NCBI GenBank assembly: GCA_037140955.1
Contig: JBAXDL010000005.1
Span: 12,334 to 76,333, forward strand
Length of the DNA: 64,000 bases
Source: a bacterium
Lineage (GTDB): Bacteria > Patescibacteriota > Minisyncoccia > Moranbacterales > GWC2-37-73
Direction of reading: 5' to 3'
Shown here: piece by piece, positions 21,172-60,596 of the stretch
Position numbering within the stretch: position 1 is the first letter of the stretch
Layout: every line of letters begins with the position of its first letter
Translations under genes and position numbers: made by a program
The notes under the pieces: generated by a model
What the model was told of the DNA's origin: nothing
The model's input: only the letters and a program-made list of their open reading frames with translations
Databases searched by the model: none

Positions 21172-22074
21172 ATGTTTAATATAATTTCAAAAACTAAATA
21201 CGCATATATTTTTTCTGGCATTGTTTCTATTGCCAGCATTTTGAGTCTTCTTGTTTGGGGATTGAAATATGACATTGATTTTACTGGTGGAACTCGCATG
21301 GTTGTCAAATTTGCGCAAGAAACTCCGGCCAAGGATGAGGTGATTGATGCTTTGAAGGGTTTTGATTTGAAAAGTTTGACCCTGCAAGGCATCGAAGGAA
21401 ATTCAATGGTGATTCGTTATGCCTCAGAGGATGACAAATTGAATTCTGATGTTTGGCAGGCAGTGGTGACAAAATATCCCGAAGCTACTCAATCAAGTGT
21501 TGATTTTTTCAATTCTTCTGTTTCAGGGGAGCTTAAATCAAAATCCGTTAATGCTCTCATCTTGGCAATTTTGGCTATTATGGCATATATTGCATGGGCT
21601 TTTCGCAAAGTGTCACATCCGGTTGAATCATGGAAATATGGCGCTGGAGCTGTGATTGCCTTGGTGCATGATGTTTTGATTACAACTGGATTTTTTTCCT
21701 TTCTGGGTCATTTTTATGGCGTAGAAATTGGAATTCCATTTATTGCGGCATTGCTTACCATCTTGGGTTTTTCAGTACATGACACTATTGTGGTGTATGA
21801 CAGAACTAGGGAAAACTTGCTGCGAAGTTCACACAAAACTCCTTTTCCTGAGGTTGTGAATCAAAGTTTGAATGAAACATTGGTTCGCTCAATAAACACC
21901 TCGCTTACTGTAATCATAACCTTGTTGGCAATCTATCTTTTTGGGGGAGTTGCGATTAAGTATTTTGCCTTGGCGCTGCTTGTTGGTGTTACCTTTGGAA
22001 CATATTCCTCAATTTTTATTGCGACTGCTTTATTGGTGACAAGTTATGAGTTGACGATAAAATATAAAAAATAA
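21172..22074 (+). CDS. secF: protein-export membrane protein SecF
   Basis: 'GIDFTGGT', 'VVYDRTREN' SecF motifs. Confidence 0.9.
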   Translation: MFNIISKTKYAYIFSGIVSIASILSLLVWGLKYDIDFTGGTRMVVKFAQETPAKDEVIDALKGFDLKSLTLQGIEGNSMVIRYASEDDKLNSDVWQAVVTKYPEATQSSVDFFNSSVSGELKSKSVNALILAILAIMAYIAWAFRKVSHPVESWKYGAGAVIALVHDVLITTGFFSFLGHFYGVEIGIPFIAALLTILGFSVHDTIVVYDRTRENLLRSSHKTPFPEVVNQSLNETLVRSINTSLTVIITLLAIYLFGGVAIKYFALALLVGVTFGTYSSIFIATALLVTSYELTIKYKK

Positions 22075-22215
22075 TTTAAATATAAATAATTTCGAAGTCT
22101 GAATTTTGAATTTTGAATCAAATCTGAATGATATAATGTTTTAAATATTAAAAATTAAATCATTGGAAATTAATTCAAAATTCAAAATTAGAAATTCAAA
22201 ATTAATAAAATCTAT

Positions 22216-22494
22216 ATGGGAATTTTAGATGTATTTGGCAAAAAAGATGACAAGAAAAAAAGTGCAAATCCGCTTGATCCTGAGAACATGGGATTCATGC
22301 AAAAAATGGCCATGAAAAAGTTGGAAAAAATGAGTCCAGCTGAAAGAGAGGCTTTGATGCGAAAAGTTATGACTCCTGAAAATATTCAAAAAAATAAGGA
22401 TGATATTCTCAAAACTCTTGAACAAATGAAAAAATCAGGACAGATGAATGATCATCAAATTTTTGAAGCAAAAAAGAGATTGGGAATTTTGTAG
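22216..22494 (+). CDS. small Lys/Met-rich hypothetical protein
   Basis: 92-aa ORF immediately after secDF. Confidence 0.45.
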   Translation: MGILDVFGKKDDKKKSANPLDPENMGFMQKMAMKKLEKMSPAEREALMRKVMTPENIQKNKDDILKTLEQMKKSGQMNDHQIFEAKKRLGIL

Positions 22495-29629: not shown

Positions 29630-31726
29630 ATGGCTCAAAAAAACGAAATTGCATTTTTTGCAAAAACAAATTTTAGAAATCAAGAAAGAGTTTTCGGCAT
29701 CAAAACTGATGATCGCACTCGACACATGTATATCATTGGAAAGACCGGTATGGGAAAAACAAACCTGCTGGAAAATTTGGTGGTGCAGGACATTAGAAAC
29801 GGTCATGGTATTTGTTATATTGATCCACATGGTGACACGGCTGAAAAATTGCTTAGAGCGATTCCCGCTGAACGCATTAATGATGTTATTTATTTGAATC
29901 CTTCTGATCAAAATTATCCTTTGGCTTTCAACGTGATGGAATCGGTTGATCCTGACTATCGTCACTTGGTGGCATCGGGCTTGATTGGTGTTTTCAAAAA
30001 AATCTGGGCTGATTCCTGGGGACCACGCTTGGAGTATATTTTGCGTAATGCAATTTTGGCACTTTTGGAATATCCTGGGAGCACCTTGCTGGGTGTGACC
30101 AGGATTTTGGTGGACAAGAAATATCGCGAAAGAGTGGTTGAAAAGGTGACTGATCCGGTGATTAGGCAATTTTGGGTGGATGAATTTCCAAAATGGAGTG
30201 ACAAGGTTTTGCAAGAAGTTGTTTCTCCGATTCAAAACAAGGTTGGACAATTCTTGTCATCTTCTTTGATTCGAAACATTGTTGGTCAAACAAAATCTTC
30301 TTTTGACATTCGAAATGCAATGGACACGCAAAAGATTTTGATCATCAATCTTTCCAAAGGAAGAATTGGTGAAGACAATGGTGCGCTTTTGGGAGCCATG
30401 ATGATCACCAAGATTCAATTGGCAGCCATGGGACGCGTGGACATAGCGGAGGCTGATCGTAAAGATTTTTATTTATATGTTGATGAGTTTCAAAATTTTG
30501 CCACAGAATCTTTTGCCAACATTTTGTCTGAAGCTCGAAAATATCGCTTGAATTTGATTTTGGCAAATCAATATATCACTCAAATTGATGAAAAAGTTCG
30601 TGATGCTATTTTTGGTAATGCTGGCACGATCATTTCTTTTCGTGTGGGTGCGATGGATGCTGAATTTTTGGAAAAAGAATTTATGCCAGTTTTTGTGCAA
30701 AATGACATCGTGAATTTGCCAAAATATAACATATATTTGAAGCTCATGATTGATGGAATTGCAGGTGATGCTTTTTCTGCTACTGTTTTGCCACCTGTTT
30801 ACATCGGTGACACGGCTGAAAATGAGGAAAAGATTATTGCAGCTTCGCGTGAGCGTTATGCTTCTAGTAAGGAAGAAGTTGAAGACAAAATTTCACGTTG
30901 GGCTGGTGTGATGCCTGCAGCAGGCTTTACTACTGTCAACAAGGCTCCTGAGCAAGTTGCTCAAAATCCAAATAATATTAAATATGTTCATCCGGTGAGC
31001 AGCCCTCAGCAAAGATCAAATTCAATACAGAATTTTGCTCCAAAAGCAGTTGCTGCCCCAGTTGCACTAAAAGCTCAGCAACCAGTGCGAAATGTTGCCT
31101 CAAGCGCTCCTGTAAGCGCTCCAGTGCCTATTGCTGCTCCTTTGTCTCAAAAATCAGTGCAGCGGCCAGTTGAAGAACAAAAAAAGCCCTATGTGCAGGA
31201 TGATTTGGGGGAATATAATGAAATTCCAAAAAATGAGGCTGTACAATCAATTGCAGCTGAGCCAGAAGAAAATCATGACTATTATGTGAAGCCAATTGAT
31301 GATCGGCCAAAATTTGATGCTGTTTGCGACATGTGCGCGGACAATATTCAAATTCCTTTTGCTCCAGATGGAAAAAGACCAACTTTTTGCAAGGATTGCT
31401 TGAAAGAATATCAACGCATGAATGCTAAGGAGAAATTGAAGCAGGAAGAGAAAATAAAGCGACAGCAAGAAGAAGCGCAGGTTCAAGAGGTGCCAACTGC
31501 TTCGCCAGCAAAAACATATCCAAAAAAGTTTGAAAGCAAGTCTGCTACAAATCAAGCGCCAAGACAAGAAAGAAAAACCGAACACAAGGCTTTTGTTTCT
31601 AAGGATAGGCCCATGTCACTTTCGCAAATGCAGCATATTGCACCCAAGCAATTCAAGCCAACTCGCGTCCGTCCACAAATAAACTTGAGTGAAGTGAGAG
31701 AAATGATTAATAAAAACAAAGAATAG
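29630..31726 (+). CDS. FtsK/HerA-superfamily P-loop ATPase (T4 coupling-protein / DUF87-like) with low-complexity linker and C-terminal C4 zinc ribbon
   Basis: 'RHMYIIGKTGMGKT' Walker A in T4CP-like context, 'IDPHGD', Walker B 'YVDEFQNF', 'RKYRLNLILANQ'; C-terminal 'CDMCADN...FCKDC'. Confidence 0.7.
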   Translation: MAQKNEIAFFAKTNFRNQERVFGIKTDDRTRHMYIIGKTGMGKTNLLENLVVQDIRNGHGICYIDPHGDTAEKLLRAIPAERINDVIYLNPSDQNYPLAFNVMESVDPDYRHLVASGLIGVFKKIWADSWGPRLEYILRNAILALLEYPGSTLLGVTRILVDKKYRERVVEKVTDPVIRQFWVDEFPKWSDKVLQEVVSPIQNKVGQFLSSSLIRNIVGQTKSSFDIRNAMDTQKILIINLSKGRIGEDNGALLGAMMITKIQLAAMGRVDIAEADRKDFYLYVDEFQNFATESFANILSEARKYRLNLILANQYITQIDEKVRDAIFGNAGTIISFRVGAMDAEFLEKEFMPVFVQNDIVNLPKYNIYLKLMIDGIAGDAFSATVLPPVYIGDTAENEEKIIAASRERYASSKEEVEDKISRWAGVMPAAGFTTVNKAPEQVAQNPNNIKYVHPVSSPQQRSNSIQNFAPKAVAAPVALKAQQPVRNVASSAPVSAPVPIAAPLSQKSVQRPVEEQKKPYVQDDLGEYNEIPKNEAVQSIAAEPEENHDYYVKPIDDRPKFDAVCDMCADNIQIPFAPDGKRPTFCKDCLKEYQRMNAKEKLKQEEKIKRQQEEAQVQEVPTASPAKTYPKKFESKSATNQAPRQERKTEHKAFVSKDRPMSLSQMQHIAPKQFKPTRVRPQINLSEVREMINKNKE

Positions 31727-31735
31727 TACTAGTTT

Positions 31736-31767
31736 AAAAAACAACCATCTTATGGTTGTTTTTTTTA
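31736..31767 (+). terminator. strong rho-independent terminator closing the 27227-31726 operon
   Basis: aaacaaccat/atggttgttt stem followed by a T8 run. Confidence 0.7.
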
Positions 31768-31772
31768 AACTA

Positions 31773-31801
31773 TTGACACAATATCAGCATTAATCTATAT
31801 T
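31773..31801 (+). promoter_or_regulatory. sigma70-type promoter (TTGACA-17-TATATT)
   Basis: consensus -35 box, 17-nt spacer, -10 TATATT upstream of the 31914 gene. Confidence 0.45.
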
Positions 31802-31913
31802 GTATTATTGGTTGCAATGATGCAATGCAATGTCCCTTGTTCTTTGATATTTTCGCTGTTATCTGTCAACCCTAAACTGAAGTTGCCCTGCCAAGCAGGG
31901 AAAGGAATTTACC

Positions 31914-39809: not shown

Positions 39810-39863
39810 TTAATTTTTTTTGATGATGATAGTTTGACTTATTGTTGCGAATTTTTAAAATAT

Positions 39864-39941
39864 TTATGCGGATATTGTTTTTTTGCGGCTTCCGTGTGAA
39901 CAAAGTGAACGAAAGGCAAGTAAAAAAACAATATCTGCATA
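39864..39941 (+). repeat. intergenic structured repeat element, copy 1 (terminal inverted repeats and conserved core)
   Basis: ttatgcggatattgttttttt | gcggcttccgtgtgaacaaagtgaacgaaaggcaagt | aaaaaaacaatatctgcataa. Confidence 0.8.
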
Positions 39942-39973
39942 AAATGAAGTTGTATAATTGATAAAATTTTAGT

Positions 39974-40573
39974 ATGGATTCAAAAATAAAAAAGATTTTA
40001 GTGAAAATTGATGAGCTTAATGACGCATTGAAAAAGGAACATCTGCGCGTGGCTGAAAAATATGGCTTTTTTGTTAAAAAGAAAAAAGTTATTTTTTTGG
40101 AGAAAATTCGTAAACAAAACAAACGTTTTCGCATGCCAGCCTGGAAATATGCTGTTCCAAAAAGCATCAGACATATTGCTTCAATGCCTTTTATATATTC
40201 CATGTTGATCCCTGCTGTTATTTTGGATGTTTTCATTACGATATATCAGTTTTTTGCTTTCCCTTTATATGGAATTCCAAAAGTAAAAAGATCAGAATAC
40301 TTTGTCTATGATCGAAGATTTCTTGATTATTTGAATGTTATTCAAAAAGTTCACTGCGTGTATTGCACCTATGTGAATGGGCTTTTTGCTTATGCTGTGG
40401 AAATTGGAGCTAGAACTGAGAGGTATTGGTGTCCAATCAAAGCTGCTAGCAAACCAAAGGCATATCATGGTTGGTACAAAGAATTTGCTGACTATGGTGA
40501 TCCAGAAGAATGGACTTGCAAATTCAACGATCATGAGGCTTTTGCTGATACTGTTAAGAAAAAGGTAAAATAA
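39974..40573 (+). CDS. hypothetical membrane protein with CxxC...CP motifs
   Basis: 199 aa with a central hydrophobic segment; 'HCVYCTY...YWCPIK'. Confidence 0.45.
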   Translation: MDSKIKKILVKIDELNDALKKEHLRVAEKYGFFVKKKKVIFLEKIRKQNKRFRMPAWKYAVPKSIRHIASMPFIYSMLIPAVILDVFITIYQFFAFPLYGIPKVKRSEYFVYDRRFLDYLNVIQKVHCVYCTYVNGLFAYAVEIGARTERYWCPIKAASKPKAYHGWYKEFADYGDPEEWTCKFNDHEAFADTVKKKVK

Positions 40574-40580
40574 ACAAACA

Positions 40581-42098
40581 ATGAATCAACTTGTTATTAG
40601 AAAATTAAAAGAGTGGCGCGCGCAGATTGCAAGTCGAGATAATCTTGAGCTTTTTCGTGTTATTCCAAACAAAACAATTGATGATCTTGGTGAACTTTTG
40701 CCAATCAACAAAGAAGAACTCCTTGCAATTAAGGGCATTAAGGATAAAAAATTTGAAAAATATGGCAGACAGATTCTGGCTATCATTAATGAAACAATTG
40801 CCAATGAAAATGCGCCAATTGTGCCGGCTGTGGAGGTTGAAGATGGAAACAAGAGAAATGAAAAAATATATTCAGTTAGTTCATATTTAGATAGGATTAA
40901 TGATGATATTGCAAGAATCAGTGCTGGAATTTGTGGTGAGGTTTCAAGTGTGAGCTTCAAGGGGCATTTGTATTTTTCTTTGAAGGACAAAAATGATGGA
41001 AGCGTGCTGTCATGTTTTATGTGGGCAAGGGATTATGAAAACAGTGGCATCGAGATGCGCGAAGGCGAGGAGCTTATTATTCATGGTTTTCCTGAGATCT
41101 ATAAGCCAAATGGAAAATTCACGTTTAGAACCAGTGCCATTGAGTTGGTTGGTGAGGGAGCGCTCAAAAATGCTTATGAAGAATTGAAAAGAAAATTGTC
41201 AGCAGAAGGATTGTTTGATGAAGCAGTAAAAAAGCCAATGCCTGATTTTCCTTCGCGCATCGGCTTGATAACCTCCAGAGATGGCGCAGTTACTAATGAT
41301 TTTTTGAACAATATTGGCAGGTTTGGATATCAAATAAAATTCGTTAATTCTAGGGTTGAAGGTGCTATGGCTGTTGGCGACTTGATTGGTGCGGTGGAAT
41401 ATTTCAAAGACAAGGACATTGATTTGTTGGTTATTATTCGAGGAGGTGGCAGTTTGGAGAGCCTGCAGGCTTTTAATAATGAAATTTTGGTTCGCAAAAT
41501 TGCAGATTTGGACGTGCCCGTGATTTGTGGCATTGGACATGACAAGGATGTTCCGCTTTTGTCTTATGTTGCAGATTTAGCAGTTTCAACACCATCGATT
41601 GTAGCCAAGGAGCTTAATCGCAGTTGGGAAAAGGCTGTCGACAGACTTGATTATCACGAATTGAATATTCTAAATACTTTTGATGCAGTCCTTAAAAAAT
41701 CAGAGCGAAAATTGGAAAACAGTGTGATTGAAATTAAAGATTTTTATCAAGCTATCTTTCGAAAATTTGATTTTTATCATCAGGCGCTTGTAAATATTAT
41801 TGGCAATGTTAGTTATCTTATTAAAAAAGATCTTGAAATGGTGGAAAAAATTCCTCAGAAATTGCTGGTTGATTTTGGTAGATTGATTTTTTCGACCAAC
41901 AAATCACTTGATAATTATGAAAAGTCTTTAAGGCAGAATAATCCAGAACGCCAACTTGCCTTGGGATATAGTATTATCAGTGTTGATGGTAAAATTGTGA
42001 AATCAATCAGTGAAATTTCTGTTGGCTGTGAAATTGTCAACAAAATGAGCGATGGTCAAATAATTTCAATTGTAAAAAAGGTGGATAAAAAGAATTAA
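40581..42098 (+). CDS. xseA: exodeoxyribonuclease VII large subunit with N-terminal HhH-type extension
   Basis: OB-fold, then 'IIRGGGSLESLQAFNNE', 'CGIGHDKDVPL'. Confidence 0.85.
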   Translation: MNQLVIRKLKEWRAQIASRDNLELFRVIPNKTIDDLGELLPINKEELLAIKGIKDKKFEKYGRQILAIINETIANENAPIVPAVEVEDGNKRNEKIYSVSSYLDRINDDIARISAGICGEVSSVSFKGHLYFSLKDKNDGSVLSCFMWARDYENSGIEMREGEELIIHGFPEIYKPNGKFTFRTSAIELVGEGALKNAYEELKRKLSAEGLFDEAVKKPMPDFPSRIGLITSRDGAVTNDFLNNIGRFGYQIKFVNSRVEGAMAVGDLIGAVEYFKDKDIDLLVIIRGGGSLESLQAFNNEILVRKIADLDVPVICGIGHDKDVPLLSYVADLAVSTPSIVAKELNRSWEKAVDRLDYHELNILNTFDAVLKKSERKLENSVIEIKDFYQAIFRKFDFYHQALVNIIGNVSYLIKKDLEMVEKIPQKLLVDFGRLIFSTNKSLDNYEKSLRQNNPERQLALGYSIISVDGKIVKSISEISVGCEIVNKMSDGQIISIVKKVDKKN

Positions 42099-42124
42099 AA
42101 AAGTGAGAATATGTTGTTGCTAAA

Positions 42125-42208
42125 TTTTCATACTGATATTGTTTTTTTGTGGCTTCCGTATGAGCGCAGTGAATGAAAGGCAAGTAAAAAATAATATCAG
42201 TATGAAAA
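42125..42208 (+). repeat. intergenic structured repeat element, copy 2 (between xseA and xseB)
   Basis: ttttcatactgatattgttttttt | gtggcttccgtatgagcgcagtgaatgaaaggcaagt | aaaaaataatatcagtatgaaaa. Confidence 0.8.
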
Positions 42209-42243
42209 TTAAAAAATTAAATTCATAAGCTCTAAAAAAATAT

Positions 42244-42450
42244 ATGGAAAGTTCAAATTTGTCAGAATCATTAAAAAAATTGGAAGAAATTACTCAATGG
42301 TTTTCAAATCAACAAGATGTTGATGTGGAACAGGGACTTGAAAAGGTCAAGGAAGGAGTCAGGCTTGTCAAAGAAAGTCGTGCCAGATTGCAAGAGGTTG
42401 AAAATGAGTTCCAAGATGTGAAAAAAGACCTTGAAGCTGGCCTGGAATAG
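42244..42450 (+). CDS. xseB: exodeoxyribonuclease VII small subunit
   Basis: 68-aa helical protein 'LEEITQWFSNQQDVDVEQGLEKVKEGVRL' matches XseB. Confidence 0.8.
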   Translation: MESSNLSESLKKLEEITQWFSNQQDVDVEQGLEKVKEGVRLVKESRARLQEVENEFQDVKKDLEAGLE

Positions 42451-42503
42451 CTTTTATTTTGCATGTTTACAAGGCTTGCTAGCAATGCTATTATTTAGTG
42501 ACT

Positions 42504-43601
42504 ATGAGCACCAATAAGCCAAAAAAACGGGTAATTGTGGGCATGAGTGCCGGAGTTGATTCTTCTGTGGCTGCAGCACTATTGAAAGAACAAGGATATG
42601 ATGTCGTTGGTGTTTTTCTGCATTTTTGGAAAGAACCAGGTCAGAGTTCATTGATTGAAAACAAATGTTGCTCAATTGAGTCTCAGCAAGATGCCAGAAA
42701 AATTGCTCAAATTTTAGATATTCCACTCTATACAGTCAATGCTGCAAAGGAATTTAAGAAGGAAATTGTGGATTATTTTCTGGAAGAAATCAAGGCCGGA
42801 AGAACTCCAAATCCATGTGTGGTTTGTAATGAAAAGATTAAATTCAATTTTTTGTTTAAAAAAATGCTAGAAATGGATGCTGATTTTGTGGCAACTGGTC
42901 ATTATGCTAAATTGCAAAAAGTTGGAGATAAATTTCATTTGTACATTCCAACTGACAAAGAAAAAGATCAGACATATTTTTTGCACACGCTTGGTGAAAA
43001 ACAGCTTGCAAGAATCTTGTTTCCTCTGGGCGAGCTCAAAAAACCCGATGTCCGCAGAATGGCTGAAAAATTGAAATTGCCTGTTTTTGATAAGGAAGAT
43101 TCGCAAGGTCTTTGTTTTACTTCCGAAAAAACTCCTAATGAATTTTTGAAGCGTAATTTGAAATTGTCTGCTGGTGACATTGTTACAACTGAAGGTAAAA
43201 AAATTGGCACGCATTCTGGTTTGGAGCTGTATACTATTGGGCAGCGAAAAGGCGTGAACATTGGTGGTGATGGGCCATATTTTGTGGTTCAGCGAGATTT
43301 TGGCAATAATGTTTTGGTGGTCACGAACGACACTGTAAATGAAAAGATTTTCAAGAAAAATATGTCAGTGCAAATAAAGAATTGGTTGGGAGCTGAAATT
43401 GTTACTCCCTTGGAGCTTAATATTAAAATACGTTATAGACATCAAGCTGTGCGTGGTATAATCAAAAGTAGCAAGAAGAATAATGAAGGTTTGCTGATTG
43501 AGGTTGATTTTATTGAAGCGCAAAAAGCTGTTACCCCTGGCCAATCTGCAGTTTTTTATTCAGACAGTGAAGAGCTTTTGGGTGGTGGAGTTATTATCTA
43601 G
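42504..43601 (+). CDS. mnmA: tRNA-specific 2-thiouridylase
   Basis: PP-loop 'VGMSAGVDSSVAA', catalytic cysteines, 'YFLHTL'. Confidence 0.9.
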   Translation: MSTNKPKKRVIVGMSAGVDSSVAAALLKEQGYDVVGVFLHFWKEPGQSSLIENKCCSIESQQDARKIAQILDIPLYTVNAAKEFKKEIVDYFLEEIKAGRTPNPCVVCNEKIKFNFLFKKMLEMDADFVATGHYAKLQKVGDKFHLYIPTDKEKDQTYFLHTLGEKQLARILFPLGELKKPDVRRMAEKLKLPVFDKEDSQGLCFTSEKTPNEFLKRNLKLSAGDIVTTEGKKIGTHSGLELYTIGQRKGVNIGGDGPYFVVQRDFGNNVLVVTNDTVNEKIFKKNMSVQIKNWLGAEIVTPLELNIKIRYRHQAVRGIIKSSKKNNEGLLIEVDFIEAQKAVTPGQSAVFYSDSEELLGGGVII

Positions 43602-43764
43602 CGTAACGAGTGAAATGATTTGTCAGCAGACAAGCATTTCCGAGTGAGCGACGATACTAAAAGGTTTAATGCCCCGAGGCTTGCCTCGAAGACCCAATGG
43701 GTTCAGGGCTTGCCCTGGGGTATATGCCTTTTATTGTTTAATAAATTTTTTAAAATAAAAAAAT
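43602..43764 (+). other. GC-rich structured intergenic segment: candidate compound terminator or small RNA
   Basis: three short hairpins (cgagg-cttg-cctcg, accc-aat-gggt, caggg-cttg-ccctg) closed by atgccc/gggtat, then gccttttatt. Confidence 0.3.
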
Positions 43765-44022
43765 ATGGATGTTGATCACACGCTTGAACTTCGAAAAAGA
43801 CATATGCAAAATGAATTGATCTTGAAAGATTCCGACAATAGAAAAAATGAACGTGACATGCAGACAGCCGAGCTTGGAATAAAGGATGTTAAGCACAAGA
43901 TTCTACAGTTGCAAAATGATTTGGTGGTCAAGGAACTTGCTATGAAAAAATTAGGTGAAAAGAAAATTCAACTTCAGGCAGAAATGATTAAGCTTAAACA
44001 TCAAATTGCAAATCCTAATTAA
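43765..44022 (+). CDS. small coiled-coil hypothetical protein
   Basis: 85-aa ORF with heptad-like Leu spacing. Confidence 0.45.
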   Translation: MDVDHTLELRKRHMQNELILKDSDNRKNERDMQTAELGIKDVKHKILQLQNDLVVKELAMKKLGEKKIQLQAEMIKLKHQIANPN

Positions 44023-44048
44023 GTTTTTGAATATATTTTTCTGGTTTC

Positions 44049-44120
44049 ATGTAGATATTGTTTTTGCGGTTTACATGTGAACGCAGTGAGTGAAAGGTAA
44101 GCAAAAAAATAATTTAGCAT
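44049..44120 (+). repeat. intergenic structured repeat element, copy 3 (degenerate arms)
   Basis: atgtagatattgttttt | gcggtttacatgtgaacgcagtgagtgaaaggtaagc | aaaaaaataatttagcat. Confidence 0.65.
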
Positions 44121-44163
44121 AAAAAAGTTAATTTTATACGCTTTATAATTTATAAATAAATTT

Positions 44164-57080: not shown

Positions 57081-57875
57081 ATGCAAAGATTGTTAAAAAT
57101 TATTAAAATAATTTCGCTTATTATTTTTTTGACGGGTGTTATTTTTGGTTTGGAATTTTTTTGGCAAAAAAAGTCAAAAAATGCTGAAATAGTTGTGCCA
57201 AAGACTGAACAAGTTGAGTTAATTGCTGAGTCAGAAGTTGCAATCAAAAATATTGAGCCTGAAATCAAAAAAGAATCTTTGCCGCAAGAATTTTTGATTC
57301 AAGTTCCATTTTCTTCGCAGGCGCCAACTGGAAATTGGAAAAAGCAGCTATTTCAGGATGGTTGCGAAGAAGCCTCAGTTGTCATGGCTATAGCATGGAC
57401 TAAAAATAAAAAATTAACACCGGCGGGAGTTGAAAAGGAAATTATTGGGATTTCAAATTGGGAAAAGAGAATTTTTGGTTATGCTGTGGATGCCTCGTTG
57501 GTTGATGTGACAAGGATTGTTAATGAGTTCTATGGATATAAAAATGTTAAAATTATTTCAGGTGAAAATGCGCAAAATATCAAAGAGGAATTGGCAAAAA
57601 AATGTGTTTTGCTGGTGCCAGTTGACGGAAAAATTTTGGCAAACCCGCATTATACTTTTCCTGGTCCTGAGCAGCATATGCTTGTCCTGAAAGGTTTTGA
57701 TGACGAGCAAAAACAATTTATTGCAAATGACCCGGGAACAAAATTTGGCGAAAATTATGTCTATGATTATGACAAATTTGTTGCCGCTATTTGGAGTTAT
57801 CCATCTGGAAAAGAACATGCAAAATATCCAACCAATGGTAAAGTTGAGAAAAATATCATTTCAATTTGTAAATAA
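57081..57875 (+). CDS. secreted papain-like (C39_2-type) cysteine peptidase, putative
   Basis: N-terminal TM/signal; 'SSQAPTGNWKKQLFQDGCEEASVVMAI' (Q/C pattern), downstream His in 'PEQHMLVLKG'. Confidence 0.5.
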   Translation: MQRLLKIIKIISLIIFLTGVIFGLEFFWQKKSKNAEIVVPKTEQVELIAESEVAIKNIEPEIKKESLPQEFLIQVPFSSQAPTGNWKKQLFQDGCEEASVVMAIAWTKNKKLTPAGVEKEIIGISNWEKRIFGYAVDASLVDVTRIVNEFYGYKNVKIISGENAQNIKEELAKKCVLLVPVDGKILANPHYTFPGPEQHMLVLKGFDDEQKQFIANDPGTKFGENYVYDYDKFVAAIWSYPSGKEHAKYPTNGKVEKNIISICK

Positions 57876-57900
57876 TATTTTGTCTGACTTAAGTTTAATG

Positions 57901-57980
57901 CTCCTGCTGATATTGTTTTTTTGCTTGCCTTTTATTCGCTTCGCTCATACGGAAGCCGCAAAAAACAACATCAGTAGGAG
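57901..57980 (-). repeat. intergenic structured repeat element, copy 4 (inverted orientation)
   Basis: ctcctgctgatattgttttttt | gcttgccttttattcgcttcgctcatacggaagccgc | aaaaaacaacatcagtaggag; the core is the reverse complement of copies 1-3. Confidence 0.8.
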
Positions 57981-58057
57981 TATGTGCCAAAGATTGATTA
58001 TAAAAATATTTCTCAAAAGTGTGATATAATGGAAGAAATTAATCTTAATAATAAATT

Positions 58058-59113
58058 ATGAAACGCGATATAATTGAAATTGCCATTGGATCAGTGACTG
58101 TTATTTTTGCTTTTTGTTTTTGGCTGTTTGTGAAAAATGCCATTGTTGTTTCAACTGCAAGCACCTGGCTTGGACCAATTGTGGTGGCTTCATTTTTTTT
58201 GGTTTTTCTTTGTCTTAGCATCTTGCTTTTTCGTAGAATGATTTTTTTGGAAATTGTTTTGCTGCTCTCCTTGGCAACAAGTGCCTTTTTTGCTTTCAAT
58301 TGGTTGCAATTCGTCGTCATTGCCTTGGGTCACATCTTCATGTTTATTGCTGCTCGAAAAATCAGAAATGATATGGAACTTAATATTAAAATATCCCCAG
58401 TAAAATCTTTGCAAGCTGGAAAGACCTATCTTATTTTTGCAATATCGATCGTTGTGTGTATGCAGTATTTTTTGATTATTCGAGGATTTGAAGGTGAGAA
58501 AAAAGTGCCATATTTTGATGCTGGATTTGTTACTAAAAAAATTGCCATTCCTTTTTTGTCTTCGGTCAGTCCACAATTCAAGGCTTTGGAGAATGAGAAG
58601 TTGACTGTGGATGAGTTTGTTTTGCAATCGCAAAGTCAAATGGCAAAGGATGGTTTGACACAGGAAGAAGAAAAAATGCTGGATGAGCAATTGCCTGAAA
58701 AAATGACAGTTGCACAAAAAGAAATAATCAAAAAACAGGCCAGGGAAAATTTTTCAAACACTCAAGCTCAGATTACAGAAAAAAATAAAGTTTTGATTCT
58801 TGAAGCTGGCAGGAGACAATTTTCTGACATGGTCGGCACAAAAGTGACTGGCAATGAAAAGATTGGTGATGTTTTCACTGGACTTATAAACAATAGAGTT
58901 AATGGATATTTCAATCCAAAGGTTGGCGATGGCCAGAGCAATTCAACTCTTCCAATGATTTTGGCGATTGTTTTGTTTTTGATCGTCTTTCCTTTGGCTG
59001 TCTTGCTGTGCACTTTTTTGTTTTGGATTACTGGTTTTGTTTTGTATGTTCTGATCAAGTCAAAAGTTTTAGAGGTGAAATCCGTGATGATTTCCAAGGA
59101 AGTTTTGCAGTAA
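58058..59113 (+). CDS. hypothetical polytopic membrane protein
   Basis: 351 aa with TM helices at both ends. Confidence 0.5.
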   Translation: MKRDIIEIAIGSVTVIFAFCFWLFVKNAIVVSTASTWLGPIVVASFFLVFLCLSILLFRRMIFLEIVLLLSLATSAFFAFNWLQFVVIALGHIFMFIAARKIRNDMELNIKISPVKSLQAGKTYLIFAISIVVCMQYFLIIRGFEGEKKVPYFDAGFVTKKIAIPFLSSVSPQFKALENEKLTVDEFVLQSQSQMAKDGLTQEEEKMLDEQLPEKMTVAQKEIIKKQARENFSNTQAQITEKNKVLILEAGRRQFSDMVGTKVTGNEKIGDVFTGLINNRVNGYFNPKVGDGQSNSTLPMILAIVLFLIVFPLAVLLCTFLFWITGFVLYVLIKSKVLEVKSVMISKEVLQ

Positions 59114-60366: not shown

Positions 60367-60470
60367 GCATCAAGACTATTTGTTTTTGGGCACGTCACTG
60401 GTCGAAATCTATGACCACTGACTCTTGATTACTTTCATAATCAACGGCCCAAAAACAAATAGTCTTGATG
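60367..60470. repeat. perfect 25-bp inverted repeat enclosing two internal hairpins (104 nt)
   Basis: gcatcaagactatttgtttttgggc ... gcccaaaaacaaatagtcttgatgc; inner cactggtc/gaccactg and ttgatta/taatcaa stems. Confidence 0.75.
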
Positions 60471-60596
60471 CTAATGTGTGGTGTAATCTTGCTGTGTTTA
60501 TCATACATCACTATAACTATAAAAAAGAAGACAAAAAAACATAAAAGCGGTATAATTAAAAAGTAAATTGCAAAAAATAAAACTAAAATTAAAAAT

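Follow-up and report, generated by a model that had tools for sequence, protein, structure and literature searches.

A family of interspersed hairpins with a conserved tip and freely varying arms was found in Candidatus Moraniibacteriota, starting from 64,000 nucleotides of contig JBAXDL010000005.1, the stretch that is called the window here. Of 20 copies in total, four lie in the window, and the other 16 occupy unrelated loci of further Moraniibacteriota metagenome-assembled genomes or metagenome contigs. The analysis demonstrated that the hairpin is repeated and dispersed, that its sites are polymorphic for insertion and that copies can be retained in place, that its arms covary, that its two strands are asymmetric and that it occurs independently of orientation. 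This establishes a hairpin family that is dispersed, occasionally mobile and constrained in structure. The copies further establish that the sequence of the tip is under strong constraint, while the stem is under pairing constraint only. We therefore rate the element as an interspersed hairpin repeat of bacteria in which the usual pattern of conservation is reversed, the tip being conserved and the termini free to vary. Tentatively, with a probability of about 45%, we read it as an element similar to REPINs or miniature inverted-repeat transposable elements (MITEs) that is recognised as a folded single strand via its apical module, effects on messenger RNA (mRNA) being a by-product.

Architecture and covariation of the hairpin

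The element consists of a long stem, P1, of 21–29 bp and an apical module of 36–37 nt, GCGGCTTCCGTRTGARCNNAGYGAAYGAAAGGCAAGY. Between copies the module has a mean identity of ~89%, the left arm one of 46%, and the two arms form 402 Watson-Crick pairs out of 426 (94%). Identity within the arms is 0.69 over the inner 12 nt, which are semi-conserved, and 47% at positions 13–25, compared to a background of 38–39% in flanking DNA. Copies from relatives are named here by the labels of the loci or genomes compared (L-numbers and JAAXWW), those of the window c1 to c4. Four JAAXWW copies and the one in L010 have modules identical at 36 of 36 positions; in all copies the arms differ in sequence from copy to copy, yet the two arms of a copy pair with one another. 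Homology among the window copies stops at most ~3 nt from the base of the hairpin, so that the whole hairpin of ~88–92 nt is the unit, and longer element boundaries were rejected on the same ground.

Three parts can be distinguished in the module: a short helix (G4-C33, C5-G32, U6.G31), an invariant asymmetric internal loop with UCCG opposite AAA, and a mini-hairpin, P2, which is composed of the pairs R12-Y26, U13-A25, R16-Y22 and C17-G21 and an R-N-A triloop. G14/A24 and A15/G23 are placed such that they may form tandem sheared G.A pairs in P2, and RNAalifold also pairs U11 with G27 in this mini-hairpin. P2 reads exactly GCGAAGC in half of the copies, while many others have ACAAAGT or ACGAAGT. 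In the variant L003a, TGAG and CGAA are missing symmetrically (4 + 4 nt), which leaves P2 shorter by four stacked pairs.

Covariation was measured on a MAFFT alignment of 17 copies for the hairpin proposed here. With this pairing 89% of the cells are paired, compared to 43–49% when the partners are slid by one to three columns; both sides have changed in 24 of 36 pairs, and none of 500 shuffles reached the observed values. RNAalifold, which was run independently, predicts both P2 and the short helix. At R12-Y26 the states are G-C (12), A-U (3) and G.U (2), and at R16-Y22 G-C (8), A-U (7) and G.U (1). The initial annotation, which had been made from the letters of the window, had proposed covarying arms, and the pair counts and the independent prediction support this proposal. 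On the element strand the stems contain 16 G.U but only 5 A.C oppositions (one-sided binomial p = 0.013; the events are partly dependent, as one G.U site recurs in several copies), and a tally of the sense-oriented copies gave 10 G.U versus 2 A.C. Although both strands are able to fold, this asymmetry suggests that one of them functions in single-stranded form.

Occurrence of the family

The search for further copies used a permissive core pattern of 23 bases, which was run against 185,579 species genomes and 241 million metagenome records. Five loci were retrieved from the former and eight from the latter, all of them titled as or consistent with Candidatus Moraniibacteriota; one of the scanned loci holds a second copy, and three further copies were detected with a covariance model at one orthologous site. 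With the 16 copies thus located beyond the window in several Moraniibacteriota genomes, carriers have so far been seen only in this phylum. The large scans used one exact pattern and hence under-sampled diverged copies such as the JAAXWW variant at grpE, and the closest xseA in the collections searched is 62% identical to that of the window. In ~290 kb from eight or more related genomes, no copy was found.

The element could not be assigned to a described family, and the match of all copies to a known insertion sequence or MITE family, which the initial annotation had named as an outcome that would refute its reading, was not observed. The covariance models of Rfam 15 yielded no match in the window at the gathering threshold and below it only generic microRNA-hairpin and RNA-OUT matches, whereas at the other loci they identified transfer RNA (tRNA) and transfer-messenger RNA (tmRNA) genes only, all away from the elements, and no tRNA or tmRNA lies at an element. 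BLAST of the element against phages and plasmids gave no match. Among 2.9 million viral contigs (IMG/VR) none matched the core, the deletion variant or either of two arm sequences that were searched, and a viral origin was rejected. A literature search returned no interspersed hairpin repeat described for genomes of the candidate phyla radiation.

Copies in the window and their surroundings

Copy c1 (39863–39943, plus strand) has arms at 39863–39884 and 39922–39943 (22 bp, one G.U) around an apical module at 39885–39921; its folding energy is -33.9, its z-score -7.9 and its covariance-model score 93.7 bits. It lies in the gap between a Flavodoxin_2 gene (end 39809) and the open reading frame (ORF) starting at 39974, in sense to both genes. 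Copy c2 (42123–42210, plus strand; arms 42123–42147 and 42186–42210, 25 bp, one G.U; apical module 42149–42185) is located in the xseA-xseB spacer, also in sense, with a z-score of -5.5 and a covariance-model score of 89.4 bits. The decayed copy c3 (44048–44124, plus strand) lies in sense between an ORF of 85 amino acids and alaS. Its stem is mostly broken, its module (44066–44102) is 70–84% identical to those of the other copies, and it scores 55.6 bits with a z-score of -1.0; the lack of a stable fold is due to the decay of both arms and core, and c3 shows how an unmaintained copy looks. Copy c4 (57898–57983, minus strand; arms 57898–57921 and 57960–57983; apical module 57923–57959) came to light when the entire window was searched with a pattern and a profile, has a z-score of -6.0 and 86.8 bits in the covariance-model search, and is antisense to both plus-strand neighbours, 57081–57875 and 58058–59113 (a Peptidase_C39-like gene and an unknown ORF). 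Copies c1, c2 and c4 are thus long hairpins of -28 to -34 kcal/mol with z-scores from -5.5 to -7.9, and the core pattern had no match in 100 dinucleotide shuffles.

The initial annotation had reported three such modules between 39864 and 44120, each with arms complementary to one another. All three are present at these positions, but the total is four, c4 on the minus strand having been missed, and the complementarity holds for c1, c2 and c4 and not for c3. The flanking genes are those named before, with Pfam assigning Flavodoxin_2, HRDC-xseA, xseB, mnmA and alaS.

All copies of the family are intergenic, 3–55 nt past a stop codon, and solitary, with distances of 2–14 kb from one another. Among 18 scorable copies about ten are in sense and about eight antisense to the neighbouring genes, and no association with any gene class was observed. 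A dedicated promoter or a terminator was ruled out: -10-like boxes upstream are found at variable distances and with similar frequency on the element strand (10 of 18) and on the other side (11 of 18), and the T-run lies in the 5' arm of the hairpin with no T-tract after the stem. An intrinsic terminator is expected to have a G+C-rich stem, a loop of 3–8 nt and a U-tract, a make-up that the element does not have. With c4 inverted in a window of uniformly positive GC skew, no strand rule relative to replication applies, and such an orientation rule was rejected.

Insertion polymorphism and retention in place

Several sites are filled in one genome and empty in another. The xseA-xseB spacer, which c2 was said to split although both genes are normally adjacent, indeed measures 145 nt in the window and 9–31 nt in six relatives. 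Synteny with the window is seen in locus L018 (sigma factor, TrwB-like protein, PIF1, xseAB, mnmA, alaS, L21, RecR, DnaB), whose spacers in this region are 4–20 nt long and contain no element. Conversely, an element is present between grpE and dnaK in L010 and absent there from the window, and JAAXWW has elements in its ssb-rpsR and efp-smpB spacers, which measure only 29 and 26 nt in a relative (EF-P 87% identical).

Three lineages with 81–83% identical GrpE each carry a copy immediately downstream of grpE, antisense in every case: L010 together with L030–L034 (one and the same sequence in five samples), JAAXWW, and L028. Between these lineages the spacers around the element are too diverged to align. 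Within the element, two adjacent stem pairs are compensated between L030 and JAAXWW (CCTATAAG/CTTATAGG versus CCTGCAAG/C.AGCAGG), and the R12-Y26 pair is A-U in L028 and G-C in L030. The JAAXWW copy has P2 swapped for another perfect 6-bp hairpin, TCCGCC-AGCC-GGCGGA, with GCGGCTTCCG and GAACGAAAGGCAAGT kept, and carries six non-Watson-Crick positions in its long stem. In the same genome (L026, 10731–11135) an HSP20 gene is situated between grpE with its element and dnaK; this gene is found there neither in L030 nor in the window.

Outer arms are shared across loci and genomes. Copies c3 and L011, from different genomes and unrelated loci, share 11 of 12 outer-arm bases, c1, L004 and L008 have TGCAGATATT in common, and the outer arms of c2 and c4 are 77% identical. 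The arms are therefore not made from the target site. Two models were rejected on this ground, one in which a small core inserts into palindromes that are already there and one in which the target is duplicated in inverted form.

Relation to described hairpin repeats and motifs

REPINs are doublets of REP sequences that form hairpins and are mobilised by RAYT transposases; their ends, the REP 16-mers, are invariant and the middle spacer is variable (PMC3116915). What they have in common with the element is that they are short, non-coding, strictly extragenic and dispersed, form a long hairpin in single-stranded DNA or mRNA, often show compensatory changes on both sides of the hairpin, and persist by vertical inheritance (PMC3116915). 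In contrast to REPINs, the gradient is reversed, with 89% identity in the centre and 46% in the arms, a REP head of the GTAG/GTGG type is missing, and the apparent copy number is a handful to tens per genome instead of hundreds. No RAYT match was obtained in 342 kb, a weak test with two TnpA queries.

With MITEs and Correia elements (CREE) the hairpin shares a length of ~90 nt, inverted-repeat arms of ~25 bp, the location between genes, the potential to form hairpins in mRNA on co-transcription and the presence of decayed copies; Correia hairpins are substrates of RNase III. It is also short, non-coding, multi-copy (20), dispersed and polymorphic for presence and absence, as are MITEs. However, the terminal inverted repeats of MITEs are conserved between copies because a transposase reads them, whereas the outer arms of the element are 47% identical over a background of 38%, and MITE insertions carry target-site duplications, of which the element shows no consistent one. 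No parent insertion sequence was found in the searches of phages, plasmids, viral contigs and 30 window proteins, and the scan of these proteins with Pfam revealed no transposase. The initial annotation had favoured a structured RNA or a hairpin-forming MITE-like element over a decayed duplication, and this is supported by the 20 copies, the covariation and the absence of a match to known families; strict MITE membership fails on the terminal repeats and target-site duplications, and the mixed orientation relative to transcription is compatible with an action as RNA or as DNA.

A further parallel are the attC sites of integrons, imperfect palindromes that are read as a folded single strand, with free arms whose complementarity is kept and with a strand-specific function. 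Their conserved part is the stem base (RYYYAAC / GTTRRRY; R''/R' boxes), and their apical loop varies. In the element the apex is conserved instead, the base has a weak TTTC/GAAA tendency of the wrong polarity, and neither a cassette array nor an association with an integrase was seen.

P2 recalls the GCGNAGC sequence, an extraordinarily stable DNA mini-hairpin with a melting temperature of 76.5 °C, while for the related GCGAAAGC the RNA counterpart has one of only 39 °C; GCGNAGC recurs at the phage G4 origin, at the plasmid site ssiA and in the hairpin promoters of phage N4 (PMC13037366). As at these sites, GCGAAGC sits atop a larger hairpin in half of our copies (PMC13037366), but here it is embedded in a 36-nt module with putative tandem G.A pairs, is chromosomal, occurs in both orientations and is replaceable, as in JAAXWW. 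The TIGR "stem arrays", hairpins with box C/D-like loop motifs, also occur in bacteria of the candidate phyla radiation, but are tandem, have variable loop spacers and lie beside a Nop-domain Tas gene (PMC12045711), whereas the element is solitary and its loop constant. Two RNA motifs were rejected. A hammerhead requires a CUGANGA...GAAA core at a three-way junction, while the element is a two-way rod that shares only UGA-[hairpin]-GAA, and no ribozyme model scored. A K-turn requires a 3-nt bulge beside tandem G.A pairs, and the covariation of R12 with Y26 leaves no bulge for it.

Interpretation

In the REPIN/MITE-like reading, elements would spread to new intergenic sites and then be kept there, and they would act and be recognised in the form of a folded single strand. 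A trans-acting protein would dock onto the apical module in a sequence-specific manner, while the long stem would have no role beyond presenting this module, so that the determinant of recognition would sit at the tip, unlike in REPIN and MITE elements with their termini. A copy transcribed in either orientation would introduce a perfect stem of ~25 bp, and hence double-stranded RNA, into an mRNA, a plausible RNase III or stability site that is probably a side effect. The protein partner, the route of mobilisation and any effect on mRNA are inferred.

A number of observations weigh against this interpretation. At the hairpin bases of 18 copies no consistent target-site duplication was detected, the only candidates being a 7-nt repeat at L010 and a 6-nt repeat at L011, and no sharply conserved terminus exists among the copies, so that no transposition chemistry can be named. 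Filled and empty sites were compared between genomes whose spacers are too diverged for exact boundaries. Two IS200/IS605 TnpA queries gave no tblastn match in the above-mentioned 342 kb of partial genomes, no trans-acting enzyme was identified, and the copy number looks low. The four JAAXWW copies combine identical modules with nearly unrelated outer arms, a pattern that prolonged purifying selection on the individual copies would explain no less well than recent copying, and the retention in place together with the replacement of P2 in JAAXWW resembles the evolution of a functional RNA. A templated correction of one arm by the other (quasipalindrome template switching) could moreover keep the stems perfect without selection; it cannot, however, account for the conserved tip.

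A true structured RNA family, each copy of which is selected, is the main alternative and a serious possibility, though one that we consider doubtful. The copies might act in cis as processing, stability or insulation modules of operon transcripts, or in trans as a small RNA that would be freed by RNase III cuts in the 25-bp stem and whose internal loops and tandem-G.A hairpin would bind a host protein. This would explain the strong covariation with G.U intermediates and without A.C at the P2 pairs, the excess of G.U over A.C in the stems overall and in sense copies, and a module conserved far above the flanking intergenic DNA and kept at the grpE site in three lineages. The JAAXWW replacement of P2 with its joining sequences kept is reminiscent of the variable helices of known RNAs, and the deletion in L003a shortens a helix symmetrically. 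It is difficult to reconcile, however, with the approximately eight antisense copies among the 18 scorable ones, where the conserved strand would not be in the mRNA, with the equal frequency of -10-like boxes on both strands and the absence of a terminator, with the lack of a gene-class association and of an Rfam match, or with the patchy distribution among close relatives. Orientation independent of transcription would rather suit a DNA-level host site, that is a hairpin or cruciform, extruded or on single-stranded DNA, that would signal priming or initiation or be bound by a nucleoid protein, and for which the GCGAAGC-type mini-hairpin would be the key feature. Half of the copies have exactly this P2, and G.T is also tolerated in DNA hairpins. 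Still, we regard a DNA site as unlikely, given that c4 runs against the direction of replication deduced from the GC skew, that many copies with ACAAAGT or ACGAAGT are without one G-C pair or the loop G.A, that P2 is replaced altogether in JAAXWW, and that the copy number is far too low for genome-wide architecture.

More unusual systems were considered as well. A new RNA or replicator, with a dedicated protein drawn to the constant 36-nt module and specificity residing in a perfect duplex of ~25 bp that evolves freely, appears very unlikely; it could be a short hairpin RNA-like precursor cut by RNase III into guide-sized duplexes, or a hairpin transposon recognised at its loop, and the stem lineages common to genomes at different loci (c1/L004/L008; c3/L011) could reflect a conservation of specificity. 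That the element is guide-like or array-derived, as a relative of CRISPR or TIGR systems or as a short hairpin RNA-like precursor with target specificity in the 25-bp stem, is exceedingly unlikely. The module of 36–37 nt has the length of many CRISPR repeats and of the 36-nt tigRNAs, and the putative tandem G.A pairs of P2 are reminiscent of box C/D. Against this, the copies are solitary with a constant loop, no Nop-like Pfam match was found in the 30 window proteins scanned, those of the flanking genes among them, the sequence as read offers no 3-nt bulge for a K-turn, and two arms and the core remained without any match in the viral contigs, the arm matches within the window being at chance level. 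To chance similarity or an unconstrained, locally decaying duplication we assign next to no probability. Copies c1 to c3 do lie within 4.3 kb and c3 is decayed, but this explanation is refuted by the covariation and by 16 further copies at unrelated loci and in other genomes, four of them with fully identical modules, and it does not agree with the core and pairing shuffles or with homology that ends within ~3 nt of the hairpin.

Further features of the window and its relatives

Approximately 65 nt after dnaJ, at 60367–60471 of the window, a perfect 25-bp stem closes a 55-nt centre with two small hairpins (-56 kcal/mol, z = -14). Its architecture is similar to that of the element, its sequence is unrelated, and no other copy was found in the window or the fetched loci. 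The gap between mnmA and the 85-amino-acid ORF (43640–43730) contains a G+C-rich structured stretch (-57 kcal/mol, z = -5.5 on the plus strand) in a genome of ~36% GC, with the look-alike hairpins CGAGGC-TT-GCCTCG and CAGGGC-TT-GCCCTG around ACCCA/TGGGT; it has no Rfam match even at an E-value of 10, and the corresponding L018 spacer measures 11 nt. An A+T-rich imperfect palindrome with 68 nt per arm, 75% complementarity and GAATTTT-like repeats is located at 22074–22217, just upstream of the ORF at 22216. At 31737–31815, a bidirectional intrinsic terminator (31737–31766), AAAAAACAACCAT-CTT-ATGGTTGTTTTTTT, is followed by TTGACA-17-TATATT, so that the genome, unlike the element, has terminators and sigma-70-type promoters of the ordinary kind.

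The xseA gene (40581–42098) encodes an N-terminal HRDC domain. This fusion is present in nearly all of the 120 best homologues and is therefore a feature of the clade and not a local fusion. In L014, L016, L019 and L022 a tyrosine recombinase (Phage_integrase) follows one to two genes after xseB, with a HEPN protein in between in L014 and L016, and the region after xseAB thus looks like an integration hotspot. The TrwB/TraG-like coupling protein of the window (29630–30943) and that of L018 (Ga0485831_0000002, 1571–2884) are 97% identical, whereas their neighbours are ~60–75% identical (xseA 60%, PIF1 helicase 75%), which suggests a recent exchange or an unusual constraint.

Implications

Interspersed hairpin repeats have been well studied in proteobacteria, and the element described here provides a case from the streamlined genomes of the candidate phyla radiation. 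It reverses the usual logic, as the reader of the element would read a 36-nt structured loop on a stem, and this gives a handle for a search for the partner protein by phylogenetic profiling. It also raises the question of how a repeat persists in genomes of ~1 Mb with spacers of 10–30 nt, and which effect stems of 25 bp of double-stranded RNA have when placed in operons such as xseA-xseB. If the element is instead a functional RNA, it would represent a new structured RNA class specific to Moraniibacteriota.

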